DNA of 60,496 nucleotides, filler included, from Candidatus Woesearchaeota archaeon (GCA_046538795.1; 5 parts of 5 records of this genome joined end to end with filler, not necessarily neighbours in it); one strand, 5' to 3'. Shown: positions 1-28,664, counted from the whole stretch's first letter. The notes: generated from the letters alone by a model not told the origin. Translations and numbers: made by a program.

Positions 1-3
1 GGC

Positions 4-5993: not shown

Positions 5994-6010
5994 CTTTGGT
6001 GATATTTAAA

Positions 6011-7813: not shown

Positions 7814-7903
7814 ATGAAACTTAAGACCAATAATCCGGTCTTTTATTATCTTTTTTATTAAATAAATATTTTAGGTTGCAAAAAATAAGATCAAAGGTGC
7901 ATA

Positions 7904-10528
7904 ATGATGATGATGGATGAATCAGATTTCGTACATAAAGAGGTTGAGAGTATAACATTCGGTCTGTTCAGCCCGAAGATGATAAAAAGGTTGGCTGCCG
8001 CAAAAGTGGTGACTCCAGAACTGTATGATAAGGAAGGATACCCTGTAGATGGCGGACTTATGGATACAAGGATGGGTGTCATAGATCCAGGTCTTGTCTG
8101 TAGGACAGATGGACGAAAGCTTAAGGATTGTTTGGGGCATTTCGGATATATAGAGCTTGCAAGACCAATAGTTCATATAAAATTCATAAATGTAATACTC
8201 AATATACTTAGGTGCACCTGTCAGGAATGTGGGCGTGTTCTTACAAAAAATCCTGAATCTCTGGTCGTAGAAGATGAGCCTGAATCAGATTCTGATGATG
8301 AATCTGGCGAAGACGTTGATGTTCAGACGACTTTTCTTAGCCGTGGAGCAAAAGGAAGGCAGATTAAATCTGTGATCGCTGATCTTAAAAGCGTTTCCAA
8401 GTGTCCTCATTGCGGTGCAAAGCAGGGCAAGATAACAATCGAAAAGCCTACAACATTCCTTGAGAATGAGAAGAGAATATCTCCTATAGAGATAAGGACA
8501 AGGCTTGAAAGGGTATCTGATGATGATCTAAAAGTATTTGGTCTTGATGGCTCAAGGATGAGGCCTGAGTGGATGGTTTTGACTATTATGGCAATACCAC
8601 CTGTAACCATGAGACCTTCAATAACTCTTGAATCAGGAGAGAGAAGTGAAGACGATCTAACCCATAAGTTGGGTGACATAGTAAGGATAAATCAAAGATT
8701 GTTTGAAAACATCAATGCAGGAGCACCAGAGATAATAATTGAAGATCTCTGGGATCTTCTTCAATATCACGTTACAACTTTCTTTGATAATGCTGTAGCA
8801 CAACTTCCGCCTGCAAGACACAGGAGCGGACAGCCTCTTAAGACTATAACAGAAAGGATAAAGAGTAAAGAAGGAAGGATAAGGCATAATCTTGCAGGAA
8901 AAAGAACAAACTTCTGTGCAAGAACTGTTATTTCCCCTGATCCAAAACTTGAGTTCAACGAAGTAGGGGTTCCTAAGGAGATCGCTATGAACCTCACTGT
9001 TCCTGAACAGATAACTGAATGGAATGTTGATTATCTTAAGAAATTCATACTAAACGGTGCAAAAAAATATCCTGGTGCTAATTATATATTAAGACCGGAT
9101 GGAAAGAGGAAGAAGATAACTGATGAGACAAAAGAGCAATTCCTTGAAGAGATACAGCCTGGATATATTGTAGAAAGGCATCTTCTTGATGGTGATATCG
9201 CTCTTTTCAACAGACAGCCTAGTCTTCACAGGATGAGCATGATGTGCCACAAGGTAAGAGTTCTTCCTCACAGGACTTTGAGGATGAATCCTGCTGTATG
9301 TCACCCATATAACGCTGACTTTGATGGAGACGAAATGAATCTTCATATACCTCAGACTCCTGAGGCAAGAGCAGAAGCAGAGATTCTCATGCAGGTACAG
9401 ACACAACTGATAAGTCCTGCTTATGGTCTTTCTATAATAGGATGCATGCAGGATTCTATTTCAGGAAACTATATACTTACAAAAAAACTTGAGTTTAACA
9501 AGGAAAATGCAATAGCCATACTTTCGGCAATCGGCATGACTGATTTTTCAAAGATAACAAGTCTCAAGAAAGATACTGTTACTGGAAAAGAAGTCTTTTC
9601 AGCGACTCTGCCAAATGATTTTAACTTTAGAGGCAAATCAAAAGCTGACAACGATGAGGTAATCATTAAGGATGGTGTGTTGATATCAGGTTGCATGGAC
9701 AAGAAAAATCTTGGAGAAGGTTCAGGACTCATGCTTAGGAACCTTCACAAGCAGTATGGTCCTGATAAAGCCATAGAAATAATTGGAAACATATTCAGGC
9801 TGGGAATCGAGATACTTCTTAGATATGGTTTCTCTATGGCAATCTCAGATGTGGATCTTCCAAAGAATGCACGTGAAAAGGTTGAAGAAGTGCTTTCAAA
9901 AGCAGAAGATCAGGTTGACATGCTTATTGAGGAATTCAACAAAGGTCTTCTTGAAGCGATTCCAGGAAGATCAGAGAAAGAGACCCTTGAACTTAAGATA
10001 CTTGAGATACTTAATCGTGCGAGAAACGAGGCTGGTAAAGCGGTTCAGGAAAATGTCGATAAGACCACAAATACTATCATCATGATAGATTCCGGAGCAA
10101 GAGGTAACCTTATCAACCCTGCTCAGATGTCTGCATGTGTAGGACAGCAGGCTTTCAGAGGAAGAAGGATTGAGAAAGGATATTCTGGAAGGACACTTTC
10201 GTGTTTTGAAAAGGGAGATCTTAAACCTCATGCGCATGGGTTTGTAAGAGGAGGATATAAAAGCGGACTTAAGCCTCATGAATTCTTCTTTGCAGCCATG
10301 ACTGGAAGGGACAGCCTGATGGATACTGCACTACGAACTCCTAAATCGGGTTATCTTTATAGAAGGCTTGCAAATGCTCTTCAGGACATGAGAGTAGATT
10401 ATGATGGTACAGTCAGAGATGCTAACCAGAGGATCGTCCAGTTTGAATACGGTGAAGATAGCATAGATGTCTCAAGAAGTGAAGGCGGCAAGATCAACGT
10501 TAAGAAGATAATCCAGGAACAAAGCTAG
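7904..10528 (+). CDS. rpoA1: RNA polymerase subunit A' (Rpo1N)
   Basis: NADFDGDEMN catalytic motif, NRQPSLH, bridge helix DTALRTPKSGYLYRRL. Confidence 0.98.
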   Translation: MMMMDESDFVHKEVESITFGLFSPKMIKRLAAAKVVTPELYDKEGYPVDGGLMDTRMGVIDPGLVCRTDGRKLKDCLGHFGYIELARPIVHIKFINVILNILRCTCQECGRVLTKNPESLVVEDEPESDSDDESGEDVDVQTTFLSRGAKGRQIKSVIADLKSVSKCPHCGAKQGKITIEKPTTFLENEKRISPIEIRTRLERVSDDDLKVFGLDGSRMRPEWMVLTIMAIPPVTMRPSITLESGERSEDDLTHKLGDIVRINQRLFENINAGAPEIIIEDLWDLLQYHVTTFFDNAVAQLPPARHRSGQPLKTITERIKSKEGRIRHNLAGKRTNFCARTVISPDPKLEFNEVGVPKEIAMNLTVPEQITEWNVDYLKKFILNGAKKYPGANYILRPDGKRKKITDETKEQFLEEIQPGYIVERHLLDGDIALFNRQPSLHRMSMMCHKVRVLPHRTLRMNPAVCHPYNADFDGDEMNLHIPQTPEARAEAEILMQVQTQLISPAYGLSIIGCMQDSISGNYILTKKLEFNKENAIAILSAIGMTDFSKITSLKKDTVTGKEVFSATLPNDFNFRGKSKADNDEVIIKDGVLISGCMDKKNLGEGSGLMLRNLHKQYGPDKAIEIIGNIFRLGIEILLRYGFSMAISDVDLPKNAREKVEEVLSKAEDQVDMLIEEFNKGLLEAIPGRSEKETLELKILEILNRARNEAGKAVQENVDKTTNTIIMIDSGARGNLINPAQMSACVGQQAFRGRRIEKGYSGRTLSCFEKGDLKPHAHGFVRGGYKSGLKPHEFFFAAMTGRDSLMDTALRTPKSGYLYRRLANALQDMRVDYDGTVRDANQRIVQFEYGEDSIDVSRSEGGKINVKKIIQEQS

Positions 10529-10561
10529 ATTATATGATCACAATCTTTCAGGTGAATTATA

Positions 10562-11692
10562 ATGAATGAAAAAATCTTTAATGAATATGAAGGAAAGCTT
10601 CCACAAAGCATACTTGATGACGTCAAAGAAAATATTGACGAGAATATCACAGATGCAAAACTAAAGAAGATTCTTGAAATTGTATATGATGACTATGAGC
10701 AGGCTAAGATAGATGCAGGAGAAAGCGTAGGTCTTGTTGCTGCTGAATCCATAGGTGAACCAGGTACCCAGATGACCCTTAACACCAAGAATTTTCAGGG
10801 AGTTGCAGAAATGCAGGTTACTATGGGTCTTCCAAGAATAATAGAGATATTTGACTGCAGGAAAAAACTTTCCACACCGCTTATGGAGATTTTTCTGAAA
10901 GAACCATATAACAAGGGCAAAGACATTAAAAAACTCGCTATGCTTGTAAAAGAGACAAAGCTTGGAGATCTTTCTCAGGAATTTTCTATAAATCTTGCAG
11001 AGATGACTATTGAAATAAAATTAGATGATAAGAAAATACAGAAGCTTGATGTTGACAAGGATAAGATAGTCAAAAACATCAATAAAGCTCTTACAAATTT
11101 CACTGTAAAAGAAAAAGATGAAAAAATTATCCTTAAACCAAAAGGAAAAGATGATGATATAAACAATGTCTACAAGGTAAAAGAAAAACTTAAACAGCTT
11201 TATGTATTTGGCATAAAAGGCATAACTCAGGTACTCCCTGTAAAAAGAGGAGATGAGTTTGTTATACTTACTGCAGGAAGCAATCTTAAAGAAGCGCTTA
11301 AGCTTGACTTTGTCGATCCAGAAAGGATACTCACAAATGATATCCATGAAATGGAAGCTATATTTGGAATTGAAGCTGCAAGACAGGTCATAATAAATGA
11401 AGTCTTCAAGGTTATTGAGACACAGGGTCTTGATGTTGATATAAGGCACATAATGCTGGTTTCAGATACAATGTGCGCATCAGGAAGAATGAAAGGTATA
11501 ACAAGAGTTGGTGTTGTATCAGAAAAATCTTCTGTTCTTGCAAGGGCATCATTTGAGACCCCATTAAAACACATAATAAGGGCAGCTCTATATGGTGAGG
11601 AAGACAAGCTTAATTCAGTCATCGAGAACGTAATGATGAACCAGGTTGTCCCTGTAGGTACAGGCATGACCAAGCTTAAATCGAAGATCTGA
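10562..11692 (+). CDS. rpoA2: RNA polymerase subunit A'' (Rpo1C)
   Basis: AAESIGEPGTQMTL, GLPRIIEI, SVLARASFET, VPVGTG. Confidence 0.97.
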   Translation: MNEKIFNEYEGKLPQSILDDVKENIDENITDAKLKKILEIVYDDYEQAKIDAGESVGLVAAESIGEPGTQMTLNTKNFQGVAEMQVTMGLPRIIEIFDCRKKLSTPLMEIFLKEPYNKGKDIKKLAMLVKETKLGDLSQEFSINLAEMTIEIKLDDKKIQKLDVDKDKIVKNINKALTNFTVKEKDEKIILKPKGKDDDINNVYKVKEKLKQLYVFGIKGITQVLPVKRGDEFVILTAGSNLKEALKLDFVDPERILTNDIHEMEAIFGIEAARQVIINEVFKVIETQGLDVDIRHIMLVSDTMCASGRMKGITRVGVVSEKSSVLARASFETPLKHIIRAALYGEEDKLNSVIENVMMNQVVPVGTGMTKLKSKI

Positions 11693-11759
11693 GAGAAAGC
11701 TTTTTAAATCATTTATTATTTTTTTGAAGAATATTATTATAATAGGAGCTGTATGAAAA

Positions 11760-12026
11760 ATGGCAGATGAAATAACAGAAATAAGAAATGCGTTAGGAAA
11801 AGATACGCTTGTGATAGGTAATGACAGGGTTCTTAAATTGCTTAAGAACGATAAGCTTTCAAAAGTATTGCTAAGTTCAAATGTTTCAGAGGAAATGGAA
11901 ACTGAAATAAATACTTATGCTAAGATAGCTAATGTTCCTGTAGTTAAACTTGATATCCCGAATGATGAGATTAAGGTTATGTGCAAGAAACAATTCCTTA
12001 TCTCTGTATTAGGAATACTAAAATAG
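11760..12026 (+). CDS. rpl30e: 50S ribosomal protein eL30
   Basis: L7Ae/L30e-like sequence in the conserved position after rpoA''. Confidence 0.85.
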   Translation: MADEITEIRNALGKDTLVIGNDRVLKLLKNDKLSKVLLSSNVSEEMETEINTYAKIANVPVVKLDIPNDEIKVMCKKQFLISVLGILK

Positions 12027-12038
12027 ATTGTTTTGCAA

Positions 12039-12464
12039 ATGGAAAAACGAATATTATCTTCTGATCTGATGAAATATATCGCACTTTTTCAGGCGATCAC
12101 AAGGACTGATGTGAAGGATTGCTTTGAGCAGAATAATCAGATAATCTTTGTGGTTATGGAAAACCAGCTTGGAAAAGCAGTTGGAAAAGGAGCTTCAAAA
12201 GTCAAGCTTATCCAGAACAAGCTAAACAAACAGGTGCGTGTCATTGAATACAAGTCTGAAGTCAAAAGCTTTATAAAGAGCTTGTTATTTCCTTTGAGAA
12301 TACGCGATATTACAGAGCAGGATGGCATAATTGAAGTAACTCCGGAAGACATAAAAACAAGGGGTCTCATGATTGGCCGAAATGCTCAGAATCTTAGAAA
12401 TACTGAAAAAATTGTGCAACGATTTTTTGATGTGACTGAGATAAAGATCAAAAATCCTCAATGA
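12039..12464 (+). CDS. nusA: Archaeal NusA (two KH domains)
   Basis: GKAVGKGA and GLMIGRNAQN KH motifs; synteny. Confidence 0.93.
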   Translation: MEKRILSSDLMKYIALFQAITRTDVKDCFEQNNQIIFVVMENQLGKAVGKGASKVKLIQNKLNKQVRVIEYKSEVKSFIKSLLFPLRIRDITEQDGIIEVTPEDIKTRGLMIGRNAQNLRNTEKIVQRFFDVTEIKIKNPQ

Positions 12465-12499
12465 TTGGATTTGATAAAAAATATGAAGGTAATACTAAA

Positions 12500-12537
12500 A
12501 TGGCAAAAACGTTGAAATTTCTTTGAAATTTCAGGCT
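12500..12537 (+). other. Probable start of ribosomal protein uS12, interrupted by a hairpin and cut by the contig end
   Basis: Synteny only (nusA is normally followed by rps12). GAAGGT RBS, then ATG GCA AAA, then a hairpin with an in-frame TGA. Confidence 0.4.
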
Positions 12538-12637
12538 NNNNNNNNNNNNNNNNNNNNNNNNNNNNNNNNNNNNNNNNNNNNTTAATTAATTAANNNNNNN
12601 NNNNNNNNNNNNNNNNNNNNNNNNNNNNNNNNNNNNN
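12538..12637. other. Artificial contig linker
   Basis: 44 N + TTAATTAATTAA + 44 N. Confidence 0.99.
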
Positions 12638-13077
12638 CCTTGAAAAACAACAATATATGCCCTGTGTGCAAAAAGCCTCTTACAATAGGAGTCTTGAACC
12701 GTGTTGAAGAATTAGCAGACAGAGAAGAAGGTGAAAGATCTCCAAATGCAAGGCCAAACAAGCATCTCATTCCGTTAGCAGAAGTGATTTCAGGAGTTTC
12801 CGGAGGATCAGTTACCTCAAAAAAGAATTTCTCAACATATTTTGATCTTATCAAAAAGCATGAAAACGAATTCAACATCCTTCTTAATGTTCCAAAAGAA
12901 GAGCTTGCAAAAACAGTTGACGAAAAGATAGCAGATGCGATAATTGCAAACAGAAACGAGAAAATAAAGATGAAACCCGGCTATGACGGCGTCTATGGAG
13001 TTCCTGTGTTTGGTGATCAAAGGGTTGAAGAAGAATCTCCTGTGGTTGGTTCGCAAAAATCATTGTCTGAATTCTAG
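12638..13077 (+). CDS. Endonuclease Q / TIGR00375-like PHP protein, C-terminal fragment
   Basis: CPVCKKPLTIGVLNRVEELADR, LIPLAEVI, PGYDGVYG. Confidence 0.85.
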
Positions 13078-13805
13078 TTTCTCTTTACTATAACTAAAGA
13101 CACATCATCATAACGATCATCTTTTGGAAGAAAACAACTGCCAAAGCCATCTACATCTGTTATCAAAGACACGAGTTTTTCTGACGTCATATGCCTATTT
13201 TCATAAAGAAAATGGTCAAGTCTGTAATCTTCATCATCAGGTGAAGTATTGTTCACATGATACATGTTATCGTGCATGCCATCGCTTCTTAGAAGTATCA
13301 TTTCTCCACTATCCATCAATTTCTCATAAAGAGAAGAATGAACTGTCCTGTTGTAGAACTCAAGATGGCCTTTAAGATCAAGATATTCTATATTTCCTGT
13401 CCTGTCCATTAAAATAGGCTTTTCAATTCCTGCATTAGCTAAATTGATATATTCATTGTCAACCCTTACCTGAAGAAGCGCGCCTACCGGCTGCCATGGA
13501 GAAAGCTCAAGATCTTTATCTCGTCTTGGAAAGTTTCTTGAAAGAAAAGAAAGCTCTTTTTCAGAATCAGCCCTTGTCCCCCAGCCATATTTTCTAACGC
13601 GATTCATGTATCTGCTAAAATCAGACCCAAGGTCTTTGTCATGCCCCATAGTATCTGCAAGAAATATACCCACAGAATCACCGTCTTTTCCAGGAAAGAA
13701 TTTGATAATATCACCATAAGAACAAAGAGCATAAGCTATCTGATAATCTCCAAAACCAAAGCTTCCGATTTCCAGTTCACGTCCGTCTTCTGATATATAG
13801 GTCAT
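13074..13805 (-). CDS. PP2C-type (SpoIIE/RsbU-like) phosphatase domain protein
   Basis: IFLADTMGH, NAG..P, LLRSDGM, C-terminal DDVSLVIV. Confidence 0.8.
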   Translation of the reverse strand: MTYISEDGRELEIGSFGFGDYQIAYALCSYGDIIKFFPGKDGDSVGIFLADTMGHDKDLGSDFSRYMNRVRKYGWGTRADSEKELSFLSRNFPRRDKDLELSPWQPVGALLQVRVDNEYINLANAGIEKPILMDRTGNIEYLDLKGHLEFYNRTVHSSLYEKLMDSGEMILLRSDGMHDNMYHVNNTSPDDEDYRLDHFLYENRHMTSEKLVSLITDVDGFGSCFLPKDDRYDDVSLVIVKRN

Positions 13806-13920
13806 TTTTCCTATTATTAAGGCACAAACCATCTACATGTTTTTATAAAACTTTCGTTACTGGGCAGTAGATTAAAAACAGTAAGCTTTAAATACTGCTC
13901 TTATTTCCTCAGGAATTACA

Positions 13921-15216
13921 ATGAAAATTGCAGTTTTTGGTACAGGATATGTAGGATTAACCGTCGGAACATGCTTTTCTAATCTTGGAAATGATGTTGT
14001 TTGTGTTGACATTGACAAAGAAAAGGTAGAGAACCTGAAAAAAGGAATAATTCCTATATATGAACCAGGCCTTTCTGAGATGGTAGTAAGAAACCATGAA
14101 GAAGGAAGACTTATTTTCACACTTAATGCTGAAAAGGCAGTAAAAGAAAATGATATAATTTTCATAGGTGTCGGAACACCACAAGATGAGACAGGAAAAG
14201 CTGATTTAAGATTTATTGAAGCTGTTGCTGAAACCATCGGAAAAAATATGGATTCTTACAAGGTTGTTGTTACAAAGAGCACAGTTCCTGTAGGAACAAA
14301 CCATAAGGTAAAAAAGATAATCAAAAAATTCTATAAAGGCGATTTTGATGTTGTATCAAATCCAGAATTCCTAAAAGAAGGTTCTGCAGTAAGAGATTTT
14401 CTTTCTCCTGACAGGGTTGTTATAGGAGTTGAGTCTGAAAAAGCAGAAAAGATCATGAGAACACTTTACAAGGATATTGAAAGGATCAATAGACCGGTAG
14501 TTGTTACTGATGTTAAAAGCGCAGAACTCATAAAATATGCATCAAATTCATTTTTAGCAATGAAAATCTCATTCATGAATGAGATCGCTAATCTTTCTGA
14601 GAGAGTAGGAGCAGATGTCAAAGAGATAATCAAAGGCGTAGGTCTTGATACAAGGATAGGTTTTAGGTTCCTTCAGCCAGGTGTTGGTTATGGAGGAAGT
14701 TGTTTTCCAAAAGATCTAAGAGCACTAATAAAGACAGGAGAGTTTCATGGCTGTGATTTCTTCTTGCTTGAAGCTGCTGAAAAGGTCAACAGAAAACAGA
14801 AGATATCAGTTATTCCTAAAGCAGAAAAGATGCTTGGTGACTTTGAAGGAAAGACTGTCGCTGTTTTAGGTCTTGCATTCAAGCCAAAGACAGACGATAT
14901 GAGAGAAGCTCCTGCAATCGATATAATCAATAATCTTCTTGAAAGAGGAGCAGATGTAAGAACATTTGATCCAACTGCAATGGAAAATGCAAAAAAAATC
15001 TTTGGAAACAAGATATATTATGCAAAAAATCCATATGACACTCTTGAAGGTGCTGACTGCATGATTCTTGCAACTGAATGGGATGAGTTCAGAGCGCTTG
15101 ACAGGAGAAAGATTAAGAAACTCATGAAAAAACCTTATGTTGTTGATGGAAGAAACATCTATGACAAAGATGCATTCCTAAAAGACGGTTTCAGATATGC
15201 AGGCGTCGGTAGATAA
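13921..15216 (+). CDS. ugd: UDP-glucose 6-dehydrogenase
   Basis: GTGYVG, KSTVPVGT, SNPEFLKEG, GYGGSCFPKD. Confidence 0.95.
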   Translation: MKIAVFGTGYVGLTVGTCFSNLGNDVVCVDIDKEKVENLKKGIIPIYEPGLSEMVVRNHEEGRLIFTLNAEKAVKENDIIFIGVGTPQDETGKADLRFIEAVAETIGKNMDSYKVVVTKSTVPVGTNHKVKKIIKKFYKGDFDVVSNPEFLKEGSAVRDFLSPDRVVIGVESEKAEKIMRTLYKDIERINRPVVVTDVKSAELIKYASNSFLAMKISFMNEIANLSERVGADVKEIIKGVGLDTRIGFRFLQPGVGYGGSCFPKDLRALIKTGEFHGCDFFLLEAAEKVNRKQKISVIPKAEKMLGDFEGKTVAVLGLAFKPKTDDMREAPAIDIINNLLERGADVRTFDPTAMENAKKIFGNKIYYAKNPYDTLEGADCMILATEWDEFRALDRRKIKKLMKKPYVVDGRNIYDKDAFLKDGFRYAGVGR

Positions 15217-15251
15217 GAAGTTTTATAAAGAAAATATTATTATTCTTTTTT

Positions 15252-16211
15252 ATGCATGATACAATACTTGTTACAGGCTGTGCTGGATTTATTGGCTTCC
15301 ATACAGCAATGAGGCTTCTTGAAGAAGATAAGTTGGTTATAGGAATAGACAACCTTAATGAATACTATGATCCTGAACTTAAGAAAAAACGGCTTAAAGA
15401 ACTCCAGATATTTGATGATTTCAGGTTCTTTAAAGGCGATCTTTCTGATTCTGCATTTATCGACAAGATATTTTCAGAAAACAAAATAAGCAAGGTATGT
15501 CATCTTGGAGCCCAGGCAGGAGTAAGATATTCTATAGATAACCCTCATGTATATGCAAGATCAAATATTGAAGGAACTGCAAACATCCTTGAATCATGCA
15601 GAAAACATGGAGTAAAAGACGTTGTTTTAGCATCATCATCAAGTGTCTATGGAAACAGCGAAAACATGCCTCTTTCTGAAGACCAAAGAGCAGATAAGCC
15701 TGTTTCATTGTATGCTGCGACAAAAAAATCAAATGAAGATATGGCTTTTACATATCATCATCTTTTCGGGCTTAACTGCACTTGCTTGAGGTTTTTCACA
15801 GTATATGGCCCATGGGGACGGCCTGACATGGCGCTTTTTAAGTTTACAAAAAACATCCTTGAAAAAAAACCGATACAGGTATTCAATGATGGAGATATGT
15901 ACAGGGATTTTACATATATTACTGATATTGTTTCAGGAGTGCTTTTTGCAATAGAAAAACCCTTAGGGTATGAAGTTATTAATCTTGCAAGAGGAGAACC
16001 AGTAAAACTTCTTGATTTTGTTTCTGAAATAGAAAATAATCTTGGAATAAAAGCAGAAAAAGATCTGCTTCCTATGCAGCCTGGTGATGTATATAAGACA
16101 TTTGGAGACATAACTAAAGCCAAAAAACTTCTTAATTATGAACCAAAAGTCTCTCTTTCTGAAGGGGTAAAACAATTTGTAAACTGGTATAAAAACCATT
16201 ATTCTACTTAA
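15252..16211 (+). CDS. NAD-dependent epimerase (UDP-glucuronate 4-epimerase type)
   Basis: GCAGFIG, AQAGVRYS, YAATKK, RFFTVYGPWGRPDMA. Confidence 0.92.
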   Translation: MHDTILVTGCAGFIGFHTAMRLLEEDKLVIGIDNLNEYYDPELKKKRLKELQIFDDFRFFKGDLSDSAFIDKIFSENKISKVCHLGAQAGVRYSIDNPHVYARSNIEGTANILESCRKHGVKDVVLASSSSVYGNSENMPLSEDQRADKPVSLYAATKKSNEDMAFTYHHLFGLNCTCLRFFTVYGPWGRPDMALFKFTKNILEKKPIQVFNDGDMYRDFTYITDIVSGVLFAIEKPLGYEVINLARGEPVKLLDFVSEIENNLGIKAEKDLLPMQPGDVYKTFGDITKAKKLLNYEPKVSLSEGVKQFVNWYKNHYST

Positions 16212-16238
16212 TCTTTTTAAATACATAATGATTATTTC

Positions 16239-17084
16239 ATGAAAATGTCCGGACTTGATATTTATTTGAAAGAGATTAGAAAAATTCCAGTACCGAATCA
16301 TGAAGAACAGATTGAGCTTTCTAAGAAAATTTCTGAAGGTGATCCTGAAAGCAAGAAACGGATGATTGAAGGAAATCTTGGTCTTGTCGTAAGCATTGCA
16401 AAAAAATATTATGGAAGTGATGATCTTGAGGATCTTATTAATGAAGGGAATAAAGGGTTGATGAGAGCTGTTGAAAAATTTGATCATACAAAAGGATTTA
16501 GATTCAGCACTTATGCAACATGCTTAATAAAGCAAAAGATATCCCGTTATCTTTCTTCTAAGAGTATGATAAGAGATCCTGAACAGGTCAAATCTGAAAA
16601 AAAGCGAATATTCAGATATGTTGAAGATTATGAAAAACAAAATAGCAGAAAACCAAGCTATTATGAGATAGCCAATCATATGAACAGGTTTTCAAAAAAA
16701 GCATATTCAGAAAAAGATGTTGAATATATATTAATGACAGATATTAAAACAAGCACGATTTCTCTTGACAATGTTATAGGAGAAGATGAAAACGCCAATC
16801 TGATTGACTTCATTAAAGGATATGACGGAAGGGATCTTGCAGATGATGTGCATAAAAATCATCTTTATCAGATAATATCTGATGAGATCACTGATCTGGA
16901 TTGCAGTGATGATATTAAAAAGGTTCTAAGAAAAAGGCTCTATGACAACAGGAGCGTTTCAGAAATATCTACTGATCTTGGAATAATGCCTGAAAGAGTA
17001 AAAAGCAGATATTCAAAAGGGCTTCGTATCCTAAGAAATTCTCTTGAAACAAAGGGATTTGATGAAAATTTTTTTAAATCATGA
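16239..17084 (+). CDS. Sigma-70 family factor (RpoD/RpoS-like regions 1.2, 2, 3, 4)
   Basis: [53 protein letters not shown]-terminal HTH. Confidence 0.92.
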
Positions 17085-17099
17085 AAATATTCTTTTTTT

Positions 17100-17342
17100 A
17101 TGGATTGCTTTCTTACAGAAAAACAGCAAAAAGATCTTCTTGAACTGATTATTAAAACAGAAGTAGAGCTTCTGCATAGCAAGGAAAGACCACACAGGAC
17201 AGCAGTAGTAGATCTTCCTGACAATTTTGATTTTTCAGGCAATGTCTATTCAGGACTTATTGAACATTTTGATAATTACAGGATAATGCCTGAAAATTCA
17301 ATATATGGAAAAAAGCTTATTTTATATTGTGATGGTTTATAA
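17100..17342 (+). CDS. Hypothetical protein
   Basis: 80-aa ORF directly after the sigma gene; no motif recognised. Confidence 0.5.
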   Translation: MDCFLTEKQQKDLLELIIKTEVELLHSKERPHRTAVVDLPDNFDFSGNVYSGLIEHFDNYRIMPENSIYGKKLILYCDGL

Positions 17343-17347
17343 AAAAA

Positions 17348-17731
17348 TCATAGATCTAACAATTTCAAAGATTTTATAGTGCTAAAGTGTTTCTTATTAT
17401 CTGTAACAAGAATACAATTCACATCGATGCAAGATGCTGCAATTAGTATATCGTTTTCATTTATCATGCTACCTGAATTCTTAAGATTATTATGTAATTT
17501 TGCTGCAATCTTAGATGTGCTTTCACCAAAAGGAACTATTTCAATATTTTTCATAAATTCATCGAGAAGAGACTTATTTTTAATATAATTTTTTGACTGG
17601 TAACATCCTTTTGTCAATTCATACAAATTGATAGAGCCTGTAAAGATTCTATCCTTAATTAGTTCTTGCATAACTGTTTTATGTTTTCCTCTAAAAAAGT
17701 TAATAACAAAATCAGTATCCAGGAAATACAT
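17348..17731 (-). CDS. vapC: VapC/PIN toxin
   Basis: FLDTDFVI, ELTKG, DILIAAS, LVTDNKKHF. Confidence 0.92.
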   Translation of the reverse strand: MYFLDTDFVINFFRGKHKTVMQELIKDRIFTGSINLYELTKGCYQSKNYIKNKSLLDEFMKNIEIVPFGESTSKIAAKLHNNLKNSGSMINENDILIAASCIDVNCILVTDNKKHFSTIKSLKLLDL

Positions 17732-17732
17732 T

Positions 17733-17960
17733 TTAATCAAATTTAGGAGATTTGTATTTTGTCAAATTCCTATCCCTCACAATCTTATCAACTTCTCTCC
17801 CAAAACTTTCATCTTTCAAAGCACCTGAAAGAGATAAAAGTTTTTTCCTGTCACGAATTGGTCTCATTTTTTTAATTACTTTTGAAAAAGATTCATCTTT
17901 TTCTTTGAACGATTTCAAATAATCATACGCATCATCTGAAATGGAAATAACTTTAGTCAT
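17733..17960 (-). CDS. VapB-type antitoxin
   Basis: MTKVISISDDAY..L...K...ESFSKVI; directly upstream of the PIN gene. Confidence 0.88.
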   Translation of the reverse strand: MTKVISISDDAYDYLKSFKEKDESFSKVIKKMRPIRDRKKLLSLSGALKDESFGREVDKIVRDRNLTKYKSPKFD

Positions 17961-18019
17961 ATATACACATACACATGTACAAATATATAAATCTATGGTT
18001 TATAAAAAAATAAAAAAAA

Positions 18020-18403
18020 TCAATTTCTTTTTGCAAGAAATAGTCCAAGACAGCCAACGACTGCAACACATGCACCTATGAATGAAAACTCAGGAACTTC
18101 TGTTAATCCTTCAAAATCCATATCAAAATCACAAAGATCTGATTCTGCTGTCTTTTCTTCTATCATTGTCTCACCAAGATAAAGCTCTCCTGTGAGTGTT
18201 CCTTCGCAATAGTCTAAGGTTCTTTGATAGTTGCCATACTTGCTTATGATATTTTTATAATCCACATAAGTTCCATCGCAATAGAACTTTACGTGCATAT
18301 CATCTGCATGGTTTTCAACATTGCCTGAGACTACGCTTTTTTCGCATGCTGCAGCTGATACTGCAAGCAGCACAAATATTGCCAGATAAATTGTTGTTTT
18401 CAT
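18020..18403 (-). CDS. Small secreted protein with a PEF-CTERM-like sorting signal
   Basis: Signal peptide; C-terminal VPEF + TM helix + KR. Confidence 0.8.
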   Translation of the reverse strand: MKTTIYLAIFVLLAVSAAACEKSVVSGNVENHADDMHVKFYCDGTYVDYKNIISKYGNYQRTLDYCEGTLTGELYLGETMIEEKTAESDLCDFDMDFEGLTEVPEFSFIGACVAVVGCLGLFLAKRN

Positions 18404-18561
18404 AAGAAAAGGTAAGAAAATATGTTTAAAATGAATTTCTCACAAATTTTTGTACAGATTTCAGAATTTATAGAAGAATTTCCGGAATCAATGGTTGTTT
18501 TTTCAGAAAATAATTCTTTTTTCGGATAATATTCAGAAGAAGCGGATGATATTCATTCAAA

Positions 18562-18787
18562 TTAGTACTTAAATATGTGTTTATGCACTCTCCCATGCTT
18601 AAGATCCTCAAAAGAATGCTTAAGCTGGCTTAAGAAATCAGTTTGCTCTTTAAGTTCTTTTTTCGTTTCATCTATCTTATTTTTCATTTTTTATTGACAT
18701 TCTTTTTTCTATGCCATATATGAACAAACTACATTCTTCTAATAGTTCATTGCGTTTTTTCAAAAGCTCTGATATATTTAGATCCAT
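18562..18787 (-). pseudogene. Putative antitoxin, split or frameshifted (36-aa and 41-aa ORFs)
   Basis: Manual translation gives MDLNISELLK...NEK* and, in a shifted frame, MKNKIDE...SFEDLKHGRV; the latter tail resembles archaeal RelE-partner antitoxins. Confidence 0.45.
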
Positions 18788-18813
18788 ATACAAAATGATT
18801 GTAATTTTAGTAT

Positions 18814-19137
18814 TTAACTCTTTTGCTGATCAGATGTATTGGAAGCCATCTTGTCAACATTTCTTAGTATAAAATCAATTATTTTTTGTTGGTTTTTCTT
18901 TTCTGATATACCAACGAGCACAATAATTACTTTATCTTCAAATATCATATAATACGCCCTGTACTTCTGGTTTTTTATCTCTCTAAACCATCTTCGCCCA
19001 TGGATTGGGTCTCCTATGGAGAAAGGATCAGTCAACAGTTTTCTGAATTGGCAGTCAAATCTTTTCTGAATCTCTTTTGTGAGTTTTGAAAATGCCTTTG
19101 AAAAATTTTCAGTTTCCAGCAATTCATATTTAGGCAT
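18814..19137 (-). CDS. RelE/ParE-family toxin
   Basis: ETENFSKAFSKL...DPFSIGDPI..WFREIK..KYRAYY. Confidence 0.75.
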   Translation of the reverse strand: MPKYELLETENFSKAFSKLTKEIQKRFDCQFRKLLTDPFSIGDPIHGRRWFREIKNQKYRAYYMIFEDKVIIVLVGISEKKNQQKIIDFILRNVDKMASNTSDQQKS

Positions 19138-19317
19138 GGCTTAATTAACAGCTATTGTCTAAAATGAATTTCTCACAAATTTTTGTACAGATTTCAGAAT
19201 TTATAGAAGAATTTCCGGAATCAATGGTTGTTTTTTCAGAAAATAATTCTTTTTTCGGATAATATTCAGAAGAAGCGGATGATAATCTTGATTCCTGTCA
19301 TAATACTAATTAAGTGC

Positions 19318-20773
19318 CAAATACTAATTTATTACTAATTTCTACTAAATTAGTAGAAACATTTAAATAAACATACGCAACATCAAATACTAATTAAGCA
19401 ATAATTAGTAGAAAATGAAAATTCCTGAAAAACCAATTGATTGGAAAAAGACTCTGGAGAATGAAGGCAACAATGTTTTCAAGCTTATCCAGGATAAGAG
19501 TCTTTTCAAGAAAATTATCGAATTTAACAAGAGATACTTATATTGGGATGAACTTAAATACAGGGTAAAAGACAAGACAGAACAAAAATATATATGGACA
19601 TTGATAAAGTTTATACGTTCTGAAAAATTTGAAGATATGCCCTTTAGTCACAAAAAGATAAAATATGTAAATCTTCCTATGGTAAATAAGTTTCTTCACA
19701 GGATAGATAAATTCCTGGCCGGAAATATTGAAGTTCAAAGCAAAAATCTAGGGCTTCAGAAAAAATACGTTATAAGTTCTCTTATGGAAGAGGCAATAGC
19801 TTCAAGCATGATAGAAGGTGCAGCTACAACAAGAAAAGCAGCAAAAAGAATGTTAAAGCAAAAACTAAGACCCAAAGATATAAGCGAACAGATGGTACTA
19901 AATGGTTATGAAACCATGCAAATGATAGTTAAAAGAAAAGATGAAGCACTTACTCCAGATTTTCTTTTGGAAATACAGACTGCAATAACCAAAGAGACTC
20001 TAAAAGAACCAAAAGATGTAGGTAATTTTCGAAACAATGATGAAATTGTAGTAGGAGATGATACAAAAGCTGAATTGATATATCATGTCCCGCCGTCACA
20101 CACCAAGATAAAAAAAATGATTAAAGAGTTGTGTGATTTTGCAAATAATGATTGCGATGACGAATTTATACACCCAGTCATAAAAGGTATTGCGCTTCAT
20201 TTTCTTATCGGATTCATACATCCATTCAATGACGGTAACGGAAGAACTGCAAGAAGTATTTTCTACTGGTATGTACTTTCAAGAGGCTATTGGTTATTTG
20301 AATATATGGCTGTTTCAAGAAGAATTCTGCGTTCAAAAAAAGGATACGGCCTGGCATATCTTTTTACAGAATTCGATGAATTTGACCTTACTTATTTCAT
20401 AAAATATAATCTTGAAGCAATAGATGATTCTCTAAACGATCTCCTTGAGTATATCAAATCAAAGCAAAAAGAACAAGAAGAAACAAGAAAAATAATACAA
20501 AAAATCAATAAGATAAACTACAGACAGGCAGATATTCTGGAAGATATGATGAAAAACCCAGATAAGACATTTACCATACAGGAAATTTCTGAAACATATC
20601 GTGTGGTCTATCAAACAGCAAGAACAGATCTTTTAACACTGCACAAGATGGGCTACGCCAAGATGTATAAGATTTCAAAAAAGTTTGTATTTCAATTTGA
20701 TGAGAAAAATAGGCCTGATCTTGAAGATTAGATTTCAAATACTAATTTATTACTAATTTCTACTAAATTAGTA
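19318..20773 (+). repeat. 38-bp perfect direct repeat (19318-19355, 20736-20773) flanking the fic gene
   Basis: CAAATACTAATTTATTACTAATTTCTACTAAATTAGTA in both copies. Confidence 0.93.
19415..20731 (+). CDS. Fic-domain protein (class II) with C-terminal wHTH
   Basis: HPFNDGNGRTAR; inhibitory SSMIEG motif; HTH-like tail. Confidence 0.93.
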   Translation: MKIPEKPIDWKKTLENEGNNVFKLIQDKSLFKKIIEFNKRYLYWDELKYRVKDKTEQKYIWTLIKFIRSEKFEDMPFSHKKIKYVNLPMVNKFLHRIDKFLAGNIEVQSKNLGLQKKYVISSLMEEAIASSMIEGAATTRKAAKRMLKQKLRPKDISEQMVLNGYETMQMIVKRKDEALTPDFLLEIQTAITKETLKEPKDVGNFRNNDEIVVGDDTKAELIYHVPPSHTKIKKMIKELCDFANNDCDDEFIHPVIKGIALHFLIGFIHPFNDGNGRTARSIFYWYVLSRGYWLFEYMAVSRRILRSKKGYGLAYLFTEFDEFDLTYFIKYNLEAIDDSLNDLLEYIKSKQKEQEETRKIIQKINKINYRQADILEDMMKNPDKTFTIQEISETYRVVYQTARTDLLTLHKMGYAKMYKISKKFVFQFDEKNRPDLED

Positions 20774-20782
20774 TTTGGAGGA

Positions 20783-21166
20783 TTATTCATGTTTTGTTTT
20801 CTTATGCTTTTTTTTAGATTTTTTATCCTTGAATTTCCTGTAATAGAGTTTTTGTTCAATATCATCAAAGAAATCTCTTATCTTCTCATGATCGCGGTAG
20901 ATAAGAATACCTCCGAAAATAGCTGAGATTGATAAAAGAGCAATCCAGAGGTTAAGCGCAGTTATTCCTCCTGTGATATTTTTTGTTGTCTCGTTATAGC
21001 CTAAGATCAATCCTACTATTATGTCAAGGCATACGCTTAATATGAACCCTAGTGTTATCTTTTCAAGAGGCTTAAGCTCTTTGAAGAATGTGAGAGTTAT
21101 AAGATATCCTGGTATGAAAAGACCAAAAGCAAACCCTGCTAAGGCATGCAATATGTCAAGGATCAT
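20783..21166 (-). CDS. Membrane protein, DUF1616 N-terminal-like
   Basis: LFIPGY...F......LEKITLGFILS; three TM helices. Confidence 0.65.
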   Translation of the reverse strand: MILDILHALAGFAFGLFIPGYLITLTFFKELKPLEKITLGFILSVCLDIIVGLILGYNETTKNITGGITALNLWIALLSISAIFGGILIYRDHEKIRDFFDDIEQKLYYRKFKDKKSKKKHKKTKHE

Positions 21167-22839
21167 ATATCCATCACCCAGAAATAAACCTCCTGGTCAA
21201 GGTTGTCAAGGCTAAATGCAATCTTTGCATAGTCATACTCATCTTCTATTGAGACTGTGTAGTTAATGGTCTCATTATAGTCATGAGGTATTGTTATTGT
21301 GCTGTTTTCAGAAATTACTTTGTATGGTTCAGGGTTGCATGTTTCTTCATCAAAGCGCTCATAGTATTCTCCATCTCTTATATAGACATTCTTTGTTATG
21401 GCTCCTGTAGAATTGTATTCGACCATCGGAGTGTAATCAAATGTAGTATTCAGGTTTGCTATTATATCTCCATTATGGTATATTATCGTATTTTCCCTTG
21501 ATTCCAGATGGAAATTGTTCCAGTCCCTGTTCTGTGTGATCGGGTAAGTGTTGTTGTTTATCTTTAATGAGCCTTTCCTGATTGTTATGTTGAATGGATC
21601 AAGAAGCTGTATGCTGATCTCAGGATTTTCTCCTTCCAAAAGATAGTTAAGAGAAAATGTTATGTCTCGTTCAATATCTTCAAGTATCTCAAGATATATC
21701 CTTCTTAATTCTTCTTCAGGGATGTTTATTATAGAAAATTCCTCAATAAGCTCATCAAAAGACTGGGGCTGTTCTGTTCCCAAGTAAAAACTTTTGTGTA
21801 GGTTGTCTGTATAGACAGAAACAGTCCTCATCCTTGTGTTTTTTTCTTTTATGGTCACGTTTACAGATTCCTGTGCATCTGTAAAGAATTCTGCCTTGAG
21901 CTGATTGTTCTTGTATAGCTCTAAAGTATTGTTTTTTCTGAAGACTTTCAGGTTTCCGTTGTTCTCAAATGGTATTATGATATCATTTATCCTGATTTCA
22001 GCAGTTCCGTTTATGGATATGGGAATGCTTGTTTCTAACAGGAAATCGTCTGCGTCAAAATCAAATGAATATTTGTTTTCATCTTCTCTTATGGTTTTTC
22101 TTTCATATTCTACATCTGAGTTTATTATCCTGTAATCAGTTATCTTATTGTTCTGTCTTGTTTTTACATTATAAAATGTTGAAAGGCCGTTTTCTTGCGC
22201 AAAGTCAAAGTAGCCTTTTGTTGCGTTAGCTATGCTTGTTTCTGATATTAACTCGTTGTTTATATATAGCTGTAATGTTGGATTATCATATATGATCATG
22301 ATATTTTTGTTGGTGAAATCCATGAATTCGTATTCAGTTTCAGTTATTTCAGGGTTTTTTGGAAGAGGGTTTAATTTTATTATCCTTGTCTTGTTTTGCC
22401 TTTCATCTATTTCTATCTCATAGATATCTGAAAACAAGATTCTTATTACCGGGTCTTTGGTTTTTGGCGAATAAGAGAATTCTAATTCATAATAATCTTC
22501 TTTTATTATCTGGCCAGGGTCAAGATGATATGTTTTGGTTTTATTGTCTGTCATATAGAGTGTTGGTTCATTGCAGTAATTGACCTTGTATAGTTCTTTT
22601 CTTAATGAGTAGTTGTATGTGAAATTGTTATTTTCTAGATTGTGTATGGTTACTGAAAAATTTGTATTTTGGTTTTGGCTTAGGAATTTTGGCAAGTTCT
22701 GAAAATCATTTATGTATAGTTCTGTGAATGATTCTGGTTCAGGTCTTGCAAGAAATAATGTTGTTATGACTATTATTATCCCAAGAATCAATGAAATTAT
22801 CATTGAATTGTACAAGTCTAGCTTGAATTTCGTTTTCAT
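21163..22839 (-). CDS. Membrane-anchored extracellular protein, DUF1616 C-terminal-like domain with a large beta-rich insert
   Basis: N-terminal TM, ESFTELY..., C-terminal VYFWV, many N-x-S/T sequons. Confidence 0.6.
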   Translation of the reverse strand: MKTKFKLDLYNSMIISLILGIIIVITTLFLARPEPESFTELYINDFQNLPKFLSQNQNTNFSVTIHNLENNNFTYNYSLRKELYKVNYCNEPTLYMTDNKTKTYHLDPGQIIKEDYYELEFSYSPKTKDPVIRILFSDIYEIEIDERQNKTRIIKLNPLPKNPEITETEYEFMDFTNKNIMIIYDNPTLQLYINNELISETSIANATKGYFDFAQENGLSTFYNVKTRQNNKITDYRIINSDVEYERKTIREDENKYSFDFDADDFLLETSIPISINGTAEIRINDIIIPFENNGNLKVFRKNNTLELYKNNQLKAEFFTDAQESVNVTIKEKNTRMRTVSVYTDNLHKSFYLGTEQPQSFDELIEEFSIINIPEEELRRIYLEILEDIERDITFSLNYLLEGENPEISIQLLDPFNITIRKGSLKINNNTYPITQNRDWNNFHLESRENTIIYHNGDIIANLNTTFDYTPMVEYNSTGAITKNVYIRDGEYYERFDEETCNPEPYKVISENSTITIPHDYNETINYTVSIEDEYDYAKIAFSLDNLDQEVYFWVMDI

Positions 22840-22991
22840 AATTTAGTTTATAATTATTCTTTATTTTTAAATGTTGAGTATATTTGAGTTATTTTTAGTT
22901 GTTCGCTCGTTCGCTTGGCAATCGATACTCGCTCACAGTCGAATTTGTCTTGTTTTTCTTGAAACTATTTTTGGATTTTGTTTAGTAATGA

Positions 22992-23426
22992 TTATTTCTT
23001 AAGAAGAGAATATATCTTTTTTGTGAAACTTATCACTTTTTCAGCATATTCTTTGTCAAGGCTTGTTCCATAATAAAGCATACCATTCCTAAAATATCTC
23101 AACTGATCTGCAAACTGGATATCTATTTCGGTTTTGCTTATTTTTCTAAGATAAGATACCTCTGCCTCGTGGGCATGACTTCCTGAAGCATTATATCCTT
23201 CTTTTAGCATCCTTGATCTTATGCATTCCATCAAGATATCATAGCAGGATTTTACAAAATCATTTGCATTGTCATTTCTTAATCCAATTTTGTTTATTTT
23301 TTCAAGAAGAAAAGAATAGCTTTTTTCTGCTTCATTTTGAAGGAATTCATATCTTGACTTGTCCGGCGATTGTTTTTTGACAATGCCACCTTCAAGAAAT
23401 TCTTCAAATTGTCTTACTGCCCTCAT
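22992..23426 (-). CDS. HEPN-domain protein
   Basis: AHEAEVSY and RNGMLYYG; overlaps the MNT gene. Confidence 0.75.
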   Translation of the reverse strand: MRAVRQFEEFLEGGIVKKQSPDKSRYEFLQNEAEKSYSFLLEKINKIGLRNDNANDFVKSCYDILMECIRSRMLKEGYNASGSHAHEAEVSYLRKISKTEIDIQFADQLRYFRNGMLYYGTSLDKEYAEKVISFTKKIYSLLKK

Positions 23427-23980
23427 AGCTCTATGCCTCCTGAAAGCACGATGCCGTTGCAGAGGTTTTCTTTTAGATGTTTATGTATCTTATCAAATGA
23501 TTCATAGCATTGTATGCTTATTTTTCTTTCAAGTGCAAATTCATATTTTTCAAGTTTTAACATCTTGTCTTTTCGCCCTATTATTGCTATATCTATATCT
23601 GAATTTTCAGTATCATCTCCCCTTGAATAACTGCCAAAGAGTATTATTGAAGATCCGGCAAATTCATGCTCAAGATATTCAATCAGATCAGATTCATATA
23701 TCTGCTCAAGATTATCTGCTCTTTTTAACTGCATAACTCTTCTGTTTTCCTTGTTCAGGCGTATTTCCCACCTGCCAGAATCTTCATCCTGAAAAGATAC
23801 CAGATAACTTTGTTTTTCTAATTCAGGCAGCGCTTTTTTTATGGCAGGAGGACTTACTTCCAAAGCTTTTGCTATATTTCTCTGATTAAGTCCAGATGTG
23901 TTTTTTATGAAAAAAAACCTTAATATCCTTCTTTGAAGATTAGTTAACCCAGGTTTATTTATGTTTACCATAGTTAACAT
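23423..23980 (-). CDS. HTH + minimal nucleotidyltransferase (MNT)
   Basis: LFGSYSRGDD.ENSDIDIAI; N-terminal HTH. Confidence 0.88.
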   Translation of the reverse strand: MLTMVNINKPGLTNLQRRILRFFFIKNTSGLNQRNIAKALEVSPPAIKKALPELEKQSYLVSFQDEDSGRWEIRLNKENRRVMQLKRADNLEQIYESDLIEYLEHEFAGSSIILFGSYSRGDDTENSDIDIAIIGRKDKMLKLEKYEFALERKISIQCYESFDKIHKHLKENLCNGIVLSGGIEL

Positions 23981-23990
23981 TAGTTAACTA
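23941..23990. promoter_or_regulatory. TAGTTAAC operator-like repeats over the HTH-MNT start
   Basis: Copies at 23941, 23971 and 23981; TAGTTAACTA palindrome next to the TATA box. Confidence 0.55.
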
Positions 23991-24165
23991 AAGTTTATAA
24001 ATATTTTGTTAATTTATGCTAAGAAGAAATATTTGATAAGCTTTTCTTATGAATTTACGAATAGTTTTTATTTTTCTTGAAAACATTTCGGAATTTCTTA
24101 AGTAATATTTTTTAATGATAAGTGAAACACAAATAATAAATAGTTTACAATATTATTTAGTACAT

Positions 24166-24408
24166 ATGGGTACGCAAATAAGTCTTAAACTATCTGAAAA
24201 GATGATAAAAGCTGCAAAAGAATATTCAGAAAGCCATGGATATGACAATCTTCAGGACTTCATACGAGAAGTTTTAAGAGAGAGGTTATTTGAAAAAGAG
24301 TCTTTGAAGGGATTATACACATATCTTGCCAGCGAAGATTCTCTTAAAAAGGCGTGGCTTAGTAAAGAGGAGGATAAAGCATGGGACTATTTGCAAAAGG
24401 AGACATAG
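24166..24408 (+). CDS. RHH-type antitoxin
   Basis: QISLKLSE..., LASEDSLKKAWLSKEEDKAW tail; overlaps the toxin gene. Confidence 0.8.
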   Translation: MGTQISLKLSEKMIKAAKEYSESHGYDNLQDFIREVLRERLFEKESLKGLYTYLASEDSLKKAWLSKEEDKAWDYLQKET

Positions 24409-24695
24409 TAATATTTCCATTTCCATACACAGATCTTAAAGATAGGAAATTAAGGCCGTGTCTTGTTCTATCATCAGAGATGCATGATGATATTCTCTTG
24501 TGCCAGATCACATCATCCGTTATTAAAAAAGATGAGTTTTCTGTTGAAATAGATAATCTAAGAGTTAAAAGTTATATAAGAGCAAATATGCTTTTCACAG
24601 CAGACAAAAATCAGATTTCAAAAAAAATAGCATCTGTTTCTTCATACAAATATGATGAAGTTGTTTCTAAAATAATAAAAGCAATAACAAGATAA
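24381..24695 (+). CDS. PemK/MazF-family toxin
   Basis: KGDIVIFPFPYTD..RKLRPCLVLS...CQITS. Confidence 0.9.
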   Translation: MGLFAKGDIVIFPFPYTDLKDRKLRPCLVLSSEMHDDILLCQITSSVIKKDEFSVEIDNLRVKSYIRANMLFTADKNQISKKIASVSSYKYDEVVSKIIKAITR

Positions 24696-24815
24696 GTATT
24701 TGTTCACTAGATATTTCATTATAGTCGAATTTGTTTTAGTTTATCTGAAAATATTTCTGTTATTGTTTTTTAATGATAAGAAAATGGTTAAAATGGTTTC
24801 TAGATTGTAATTGTT

Positions 24816-24915
24816 NNNNNNNNNNNNNNNNNNNNNNNNNNNNNNNNNNNNNNNNNNNNTTAATTAATTAANNNNNNNNNNNNNNNNNNNNNNNNNNNNN
24901 NNNNNNNNNNNNNNN
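24816..24915. other. Artificial contig linker
   Basis: N-TTAATTAATTAA-N. Confidence 0.99.
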
Positions 24916-25143
24916 AAAGAAGAACAGATAGGATTTCATAAAGGATCATTATCGACCCTTGCAAAAGAAAGGGCAGAACTTGCTAAACTACTTAATATAG
25001 TTGAGCAACTTATGCAGATGCATGTCCAGTCGCTAAAACAGCTTGGCGTTGATCTTGAAGCACAGGCTCAGCAGCAGCCTCAGGGAACACAAGCTCAGCA
25101 GCAGAACAAGCCTATTGAAGATCTTGTAAACAGACCCCAATGA
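24916..25143 (+). CDS. Hypothetical protein, 5'-partial (not in the ORF track)
   Basis: Open frame KEEQIGFHKGSLSTLAKERAEL...QQQ...RPQ*. Confidence 0.7.
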   Translation, partial: KEEQIGFHKGSLSTLAKERAELAKLLNIVEQLMQMHVQSLKQLGVDLEAQAQQQPQGTQAQQQNKPIEDLVNRPQ

Positions 25144-25238
25144 ATCTTTTTATCCTTATTTAACCTTTTTCTTTTATTTGATTTTGCAGAATCGATCTTT
25201 TATTAATGATCCATGATTTGTACAAATAGTTCAATAAC

Positions 25239-25769: not shown

Positions 25770-25830
25770 AAAACAAAAATACACTCATTTATAGTAAGTT
25801 TTATATGTCTTTTGTCTCCTAGAAACCTTT

Positions 25831-28656: not shown

Positions 28657-28664
28657 ACCAACTA

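Follow-up and report, generated by a model that had tools for sequence, protein, structure and literature searches.

What does a bacterial-type sigma-70 gene do in an archaeal cell that contains no bacterial RNA polymerase? Archaeal polymerases start transcription with TBP, TFB and TFE, yet sigma genes are found in over a third of Woesearchaeales, a puzzle known from the literature since 2021. We address this question for a gene located in a 60,496-nucleotide stretch of DNA (hereafter, the window) from a Candidatus Woesearchaeota archaeon (GCA_046538795.1). The gene is of a known kind. As the original prediction had surmised, sigma-like genes are already annotated in related genomes; they have been published as fam00359, a sigma-70 family of DPANN archaea with 221 sequences and a length of 280 (Castelle et al. 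2021, Front Microbiol 12:660052, PMC8204110). Of 196 Woesearchaeota, 39.3% encode a member, and the authors ruled out mis-binning. In its account of this family, the same paper reports no anti-sigma factors and calls the mechanism unclear. The new part is small, namely, a short subfamily with a variable wedge, and a native promoter.

The gene, its contig and its likely promoter

The gene is an intact 281-codon open reading frame (ORF) at positions 16239-17084 (+) that encodes a sigma-70 family protein with regions 1.2, 2, 3 and 4. The start originally placed at 16239 yields 281 aa, whereas the ATG at 16245 yields 279 aa, the length of the public gene call P0001. Relative to the ATG at 16245, a TATA-like hexamer is located at -30/-29, as is typical of this genome, and relative to 16239 at -24/-23; we therefore favour 16245-17084 (+) as the likely true coding sequence.

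Three of the four sigma regions match Pfam models above the cut-offs: region 1.2 (residues 6-36; 16254-16346, +; PF00140, 37.5 bits versus 22; pLDDT 80-97), region 2 (residues 42-108; 16362-16562, +; PF04542, 63.8 bits versus 24, E 1.2e-17), where the match takes in helix 2.2 (core binding) as well as regions 2.3 and 2.4, and the helix-turn-helix of region 4 (residues 227-266; 16917-17036, +; PF04545, 26.6 bits versus 24.1; pLDDT 87-95). Region 3 with the 3.2 linker (residues 126-199; 16614-16835, +) scores just under the cut-off (PF04539, 24.1 versus 25.3 bits); helices are modelled at residues 115-171, the low confidence at 170-195 is expected of a 3.2 linker, and the motif in this linker can be aligned with SigA. 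TIGR02937, the superfamily model, is the only NCBIfam sigma model passed (80.9 bits versus 42.9). The AlphaFold model, built from 28 sequences, has a mean pLDDT of 81.4 (sigma2, 85-97; sigma4, 87-95), and a Foldseek search with this model placed SigA and sigma-S chains on top with probability 1.00, the best 50 matches all being sigma factors or sigma-containing structures. Thus, the gene product is predicted to adopt a sigma fold, and the initial identification of a bacterial-type sigma-70 gene with regions 1.2 to 4 holds. By eye, the protein has no signal-peptide-like stretch at the N-terminus and no membrane span.

The window consists of five contigs of one MAG (denoted G000; 1.34 Mb in 97 contigs, 97.6% complete, 1.6% contamination), which occupy positions 1-12537, 12638-24815, 24916-36957, 37058-48986 and 49087-60496 and are joined at 12538-12637, 24816-24915, 36958-37057 and 48987-49086 by N44-TTAATTAATTAA-N44 spacers, so that arguments from the 'same contig' are invalid across the joins. 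The only RNA polymerase of the MAG is the split archaeal B''/B'/A'/A'' enzyme, with a single, archaeal Rpb2_6 match, and the MAG also encodes TBP, TFB and two TFE genes. Among the RpoA' relatives that carry a name, all come from Candidatus Woesearchaeota or Nanoarchaeota archaeon (65-83% identity). However, the polymerase operon (split B''/B', A', A'' and NusA-KH) is on the contig at 1-12537, and the sigma gene is on its own contig, G000:C18 (12,178 bp; 12638-24815, bounded by N runs); the archaeal origin of the latter was therefore tested separately. A small contig, G000:C23 (L138), overlaps the start of the sigma contig by 54 nt and bears a HEPN-nucleotidyltransferase pair.

The sigma contig matches DNA of genomes of the same family and order with 64-69% identity over the genes for UDP-glucose dehydrogenase, epimerase and MarR-nucleotidyltransferase. 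When the 27 contigs between 8 and 16 kb are ordered by tetranucleotide distance from the genome, it is 22nd and the polymerase contig 26th. In run X2, a microbial mat metagenome from another study, one contig spans 15834-18485 with one difference and one gap, covering the end of the epimerase gene, the sigma gene, a downstream ORF (orf80, see below), VapBC and the PEF-like gene, and in run X1, a possible source run, one contig spans 12638-18454; the dyad codons discussed below show no variant in these two independent assemblies. None of the six sequencing runs listed as containing the stretch is an RNA run. The codon-fit score of the sigma gene falls in the 83rd percentile of the ORFs of the genome, and its GC and GC3 in the 10th, that is, the gene is AT-richer than most.

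The original prediction had also inferred an archaeal setting from PEF-CTERM and DUF1616 genes and TATA boxes on the sigma contig. The genes in question do share this contig, but their assignments are weak: the two DUF1616 matches (27.2 and 19.3 bits) are under the Pfam cut-off of 31.6, and the PEF-CTERM-like tail of the gene at 18020-18403 (-) was recognized by eye, with no such NCBIfam match at E <= 0.01. The TATA boxes, in contrast, are statistically clear genome-wide. A TATA-like hexamer starts at -32 to -28 in 230 of the 747 ORFs of at least 200 aa in G000, compared to 21-50 of 747 for control 5-nt windows, and this sharp peak 30 nt before the starts indicates that mRNAs in this genome are mostly leaderless. 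In front of the sigma gene, a TATA-box-like element (a T-rich run, then AAATA; 16215-16224, +) likely forms such a leaderless archaeal promoter, and the same layout precedes the epimerase, VapB, orf80, the PEF-like gene and one DUF1616-like gene on this contig. Given this textbook promoter, the archaeon's own machinery would be expected to express the sigma gene. Bacterial promoter motifs are not in excess around the gene (9 sigma-70-like sites versus 8.2 +/- 3.0 in shuffled sequences), nor was a terminator-like site found there. The TATA-at-minus-30 layout is also useful for telling native genes from foreign ones, with 15222 (epimerase) and 16215 (sigma) as examples.

We consider it very improbable that bacterial or viral DNA was binned here by mistake, in which case there would be no archaeal sigma gene to explain. 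The contig is short (12 kb), lacks universal archaeal markers and is AT-richer than the MAG mean, and two rpoS-like genes on DPANN viruses have been published (Nat Commun 2025, PMC12647753). The tetranucleotides, the same-order DNA matches, the second-study contig and the TATA layout all speak for native DNA, however, no virion or phage-structural family has a match on the contig, and the nearest relatives of the gene reside in woesearchaeal genomes beside archaeal genes. As far as tested, the sigma contig looks archaeal and native, in line with the initial assignment of the contig to archaea.

The published viral genes resemble ours in that a sigma homologue is tied to DPANN archaea, but the contig of our gene bears no viral hallmark gene. 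A viral origin was rejected after a comparison with 382 viral stretches that contain sigma relatives: the 80 kept were 30-46% identical to the query, no closer than bacterial RpoD, and no subfamily-level relative on a viral contig was found among these 80 loci.

An orphan ORF of 80 aa (orf80; 17100-17342, +) begins 15 nt 3' of the sigma gene and has its own TATA-like hexamer at -28/-27. Searches against Pfam, NCBIfam and PHROG gave no match for it, and no homologue was found in 200 further genomes from the order; whether it is tied to sigma function is uncertain. On the other side, 2.4 kb upstream of the sigma gene, is a gene for a SpoIIE/PP2C-type phosphatase (13074-13832, -). The idea of partner switching that this gene prompted was dropped: the genome yielded no STAS domain and, for anti-sigma kinases, nothing above the cut-off, the single HATPase_c_2 match (in a 498-aa frame) being weaker than that, and because both components are missing, G000 appears to have no bacterial partner-switching module. 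A low-GC stretch beside the sigma gene (17348-20731) is crowded with toxin-antitoxin-type genes, which encode VapBC, a ParE/RelE-like protein and a Fic protein.

Relatives and distribution

A search of 301 genomes from the order detected sigma-70 region 2 in 115 of them (111 of 297 when four unpublished matching genomes are set aside), spread over 100 of 208 genera; genomes assembled into one and three contigs (G022 and G034) are among the matches. The number of copies per genome reaches four to seven. G000 itself has four copies on three contigs, and the other three paralogues bear Trp at the dyad. Within the same family, no sigma was found in six genomes by protein search or in four by the family model.

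By description, our gene resembles fam00359 in its length (279-281 aa versus 280), in what appears by eye to be the lack of a signal peptide or membrane span, and in its occurrence in a woesearchaeal genome, and both the count for the order and the missing anti-sigma partners agree with the paper. The difference lies in the Trp dyad and in a short subfamily with indels of its own, neither of which is mentioned in the passages of Castelle 2021 (PMC8204110) cited here.

A word-indexed search of 5.8 billion proteins retrieved the query itself alone at high identity, followed by RpoD of Clostridia and Halanaerobiales at ~41%. No close orthologue was found, the nearest having 37% identity. Phylogenetic trees were built from 61 rows (quick tree, after removal of three rows that came from unpublished genomes and of one that aligned poorly) and from 55 rows (careful tree; six long or unstable rows also dropped). 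In both trees, the query groups with a gene from the woesearchaeal genome G123 and a metagenome protein, P0005, and the next neighbours are archaeal; the quick tree supports this grouping with an SH-aLRT of 99, and the careful tree, whose bootstrap was not fully settled, with 100/99 (bootstrap/SH-aLRT). Branches are long in both trees. The three proteins are 31-36% identical to one another and have common indels, which define the subfamily. The G123 gene is flanked by a 241-aa ORF that by eye resembles an archaeal-type triosephosphate isomerase and by a 121-aa ORF resembling a winged-helix regulator. At G123:C8 49396-52682 (L141), two short-subfamily sigma genes are found 2.7 kb apart on opposite strands.

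An exhaustive profile search of 1.84 billion representatives brought up further members; scores descended from 304 to ~200 bits, the general sigma level being near 180. From the top 38 sequences, 23 short forms with the subfamily indels were picked by judgement as the subfamily set, and the remaining 15 (long, duplicated, fragmentary or group-1-like) were left out. The profile of these 23 rows matched, at 240 bits or more, 5 of 401 genomes of the order, none of them unpublished: G000, G123 (two genes), G056, G219 and G177. By these sequence comparisons, the gene belongs to a sparse, short (~275 aa), fast-evolving woesearchaeal subfamily and is not a recent import, given its grouping with archaeal sequences, the common indels and the codon fit. 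The phylogeny that had been called for in the original prediction thus puts the query beside a woesearchaeal gene, with archaeal rows next, and lends no support to a recent transfer.

Sigma-like regions also turned up in very long frames, one of 1763 aa in the woesearchaeal G114:C5 (L017) and, in the representative library, in proteins of 2571 and 7852 aa (P0369 and P0430).

The tryptophan dyad and known sigma factors

The place of the region 2.3 Trp dyad, W433/W434 of E. coli RpoD (K-12), is taken by Cys95-Leu96 (16521-16526, +). The codons TGC (C95; 16521-16523) and TTA (L96; 16524-16526), within the region 2.3 stretch 16506-16535, align to the two tryptophans, confirming the loss of the WW dyad noticed at the outset. 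Among 40 archaeal rows of the order (query excluded), the dyad is WW in 31, FW and HW in two each, and WN, YW, WK, QW and SK in one each. In the 23-row subfamily, WW is found in 14, a single Trp in four (PW, WF, WY, WQ) and no Trp in five (CL in the query, KG, LL, FF and CR); two further genomic members have IW and KI. The notion that CL is unique, which the order sample would allow (0 of 40 with CL, one row without Trp), was overturned by the exhaustive search, given KG, LL, FF and CR.

The other sigma-70 positions compared (e.g. R385, D403, H455, R584) are ones of functional weight in sigma-70. In region 2, D403, E407, N409, Y430, Q437 and R441 are kept, and R385G, Q406N and T440S are changed; in region 4, E585 and R586 are kept, and R584P, R588K and Q589S are changed. 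R385G, H455Q, E458S and R584P set the query apart from most of its relatives.

The query is colinear with group 1 sigmas (RpoD/SigA) across regions 1.2, 2.1-2.4, 3.0-3.2 and 4.1-4.2, at 36-41% identity, with hardly any difference in region 2.2 or in the motif of the 3.2 linker. Closest by sequence are Firmicutes SigA proteins (PDB 7l7b, 7ckq and 8x6f; E ~1e-38), which are also the best solved relatives. In contrast to group 1, the query lacks region 1.1 (no PF03979) and starts at region 1.2, whereas its bacterial top matches carry PF03979; it differs further in Cys-Leu for the Trp dyad and in the four substitutions just listed, misses the NCBIfam RpoD cut-offs (151 versus 572 and 146 versus 354 bits), and resides in a host without a bacterial core polymerase. 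The RpoS and RpoD models head the NCBIfam ranking; the best-scoring one is TIGR02394 for group 2 (RpoS), yet at 174.8 bits versus a cut-off of 378.7.

With group 3 sigmas (E. coli FliA and RpoH, and the SigB/F/G type), the query shares the combination of regions 2-4, no region 1.1 and a dyad that is not conserved: E. coli FliA has Q-R and RpoH has H-W at these positions. By score, the query is not a member of this group (SigBFG, 94 versus 234 bits; RpoH, 88 versus 323), and in the tree it is located among woesearchaeal sequences near the group 1 cluster. By analogy, we nevertheless think that it may work like a group 3 alternative sigma. According to Bae et al. 2015, all housekeeping sigmas carry the dyad, but not all alternative sigmas do; the latter tend to have bulky hydrophobic residues there and to melt DNA more weakly. 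Wedge activity has been ranked WW > HW > QR (Lu et al. 2023). In this literature, alternative sigmas rarely retain the dyad, and group 3 wedges are associated with weaker melting and a narrower choice of promoters (Bae 2015, Lu 2023). Taken together, the FliA and RpoH dyads, the published ranking and the variability within the subfamily imply that loss of the dyad does not equal loss of melting, and the earlier proposal of a protein that acts without opening promoters does not follow. By comparison with these wedges, Cys-Leu would be at the weak end of wedge strength.

The same losses could also mark the gene as a functionless relic, an old transferred paralogue that has been drifting, with the changes in the dyad and the contact residues as early decay. 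Among the 41 order-level rows (the 40 and the query), the query is the only one to have lost W433 and W434 together with R385, and it has long branches, no close orthologue in 5.8 billion proteins and none in the six same-family genomes. We regard this reading as doubtful: the 281-codon frame is intact in AT-rich DNA, an identical sequence is present in samples of two studies, the domain folds are predicted with confidence, the TATA box has exactly the spacing that is typical of the genome, codon usage matches that of the genome as a whole, and the other subfamily members without Trp are intact as well.

Polymerase contact and possible roles

In three members of the subfamily (31-36% identical), the invariant residues include D65, L66, I67, G70, N71, G73, L74, A77 and F81 in region 2.2 and G86, R88, F89, S90, T91 and Y92 in region 2.3. 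Across the 23 subfamily rows, the nearly invariant columns again fall mostly within regions 2.2-2.3, and the wedge is variable. A wedge that is free to vary next to a polymerase-binding helix that is not would make binding, rather than melting, the selected activity. This pattern, the main clue to function, suggests that selection acts on the face of the protein that bacterial sigmas use to contact the beta' clamp helices and the non-template strand, here in cells whose sole polymerase is archaeal. The 281-codon frame, which stays open in 32% GC DNA, likewise points to selection.

The RpoA' coiled-coil of this archaeon aligns with residues 233-352 of E. coli beta', gapless through the coiled-coil, at 34% identity. 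At the positions of beta' R275, E295 and A302, which we take to be critical for sigma-70 binding, the archaeal protein has I, L and H. Because these contact positions are changed, bacterial-style docking is not simply transferable, and any docking would not be a copy of the bacterial one.

The explanation that we favour, at somewhat less than an even chance, is a native regulator of the alternative-sigma kind that acts inside the archaeon, binding both DNA and the polymerase of its own cell but melting promoters poorly. Regions 4 and 2 would read DNA, the conserved region 2.2 would grip a surface of the polymerase, most plausibly the clamp coiled-coil of RpoA', and the Cys-Leu wedge would contribute little melting power of its own. 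We infer, accordingly graded, expression of the gene, DNA binding, contact with the archaeal polymerase, and melting that is weak but not absent. The losses of W433, W434, R385, H455, E458 and R584 could equally reflect relaxed constraint, and the low GC and the toxin-antitoxin neighbours are what accessory DNA would have; both count against this explanation, as do the changed contact positions in RpoA' and the lack of a sigma in the six same-family genomes searched. The 'repurposed regulator' considered in the original prediction is compatible with the data and close to our best reading.

A DNA-binding regulator that works independently of the polymerase, in which region 4 through its helix-turn-helix, possibly along with region 2, would serve as a repressor or activator at archaeal promoters, seems unlikely to us. 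Bacterial-type regulators are common in archaea, region 4 is a confident helix-turn-helix, and the presumed sigma contacts of beta' are not kept in RpoA'. The part that is best conserved, though, is region 2.2-2.3, needless for a plain repressor, and not region 4.

Still less probable is the effector or decoy put forward in the original prediction, a protein that would be delivered into a bacterial partner, where its region 2.2 would attach to the core enzyme and transcription would be blocked or redirected. It could draw on a region 2.2 near the bacterial consensus (D403, E407 and N409 kept), on a clamp coiled-coil in the archaeon that lacks the contact residues presumed for beta', and on the view of DPANN archaea as symbionts (PMC8204110). 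The idea finds no support: there is neither a signal-peptide-like N-terminus by eye nor an adjoining secretion gene, and fam00359 stands at 0.0 in the signalP and TMHMM columns of Table S3 of Castelle (PMC8204110). The promoter, moreover, is of the genome-typical archaeal type, and up to four to seven copies per genome fit regulators better than one effector. We know of no DPANN archaeon with a bacterial host that could serve as the partner.

To return to the native regulator, a more specific version of it, which we offer as a long shot, is that the short woesearchaeal sigmas dock on the archaeal clamp coiled-coil, the site of TFE and Spt4/5, and that the Trp-less copy is a non-melting brake that competes with its paralogues or with TFE. 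If this were true, docking sigmas would constitute a hybrid bacterial-archaeal layer of transcription control. The subfamily does not solve the puzzle, but it supplies natural pairs of 'wedge-less' and 'wedge-bearing' proteins in which binding and melting can be compared.

Several observations concern other contigs of the window. A 209-aa protein (30621-31250, +) has a weak match to Kazal-type protease inhibitors (E 1.6e-4), unusual in an archaeon. Class Ib aminoacyl-tRNA synthetases of the TrpRS/TyrRS type are encoded three times (41084-42217, -; 49626-50723, -; 53007-54209, +), so that two contigs, over 13 kb of the window, contribute the expected pair and one more. Between two phage-integrase-family genes is a 1049-aa ORF without a Pfam match (43913-47062), and the whole region (42876-47705, +) may be an integrated element.
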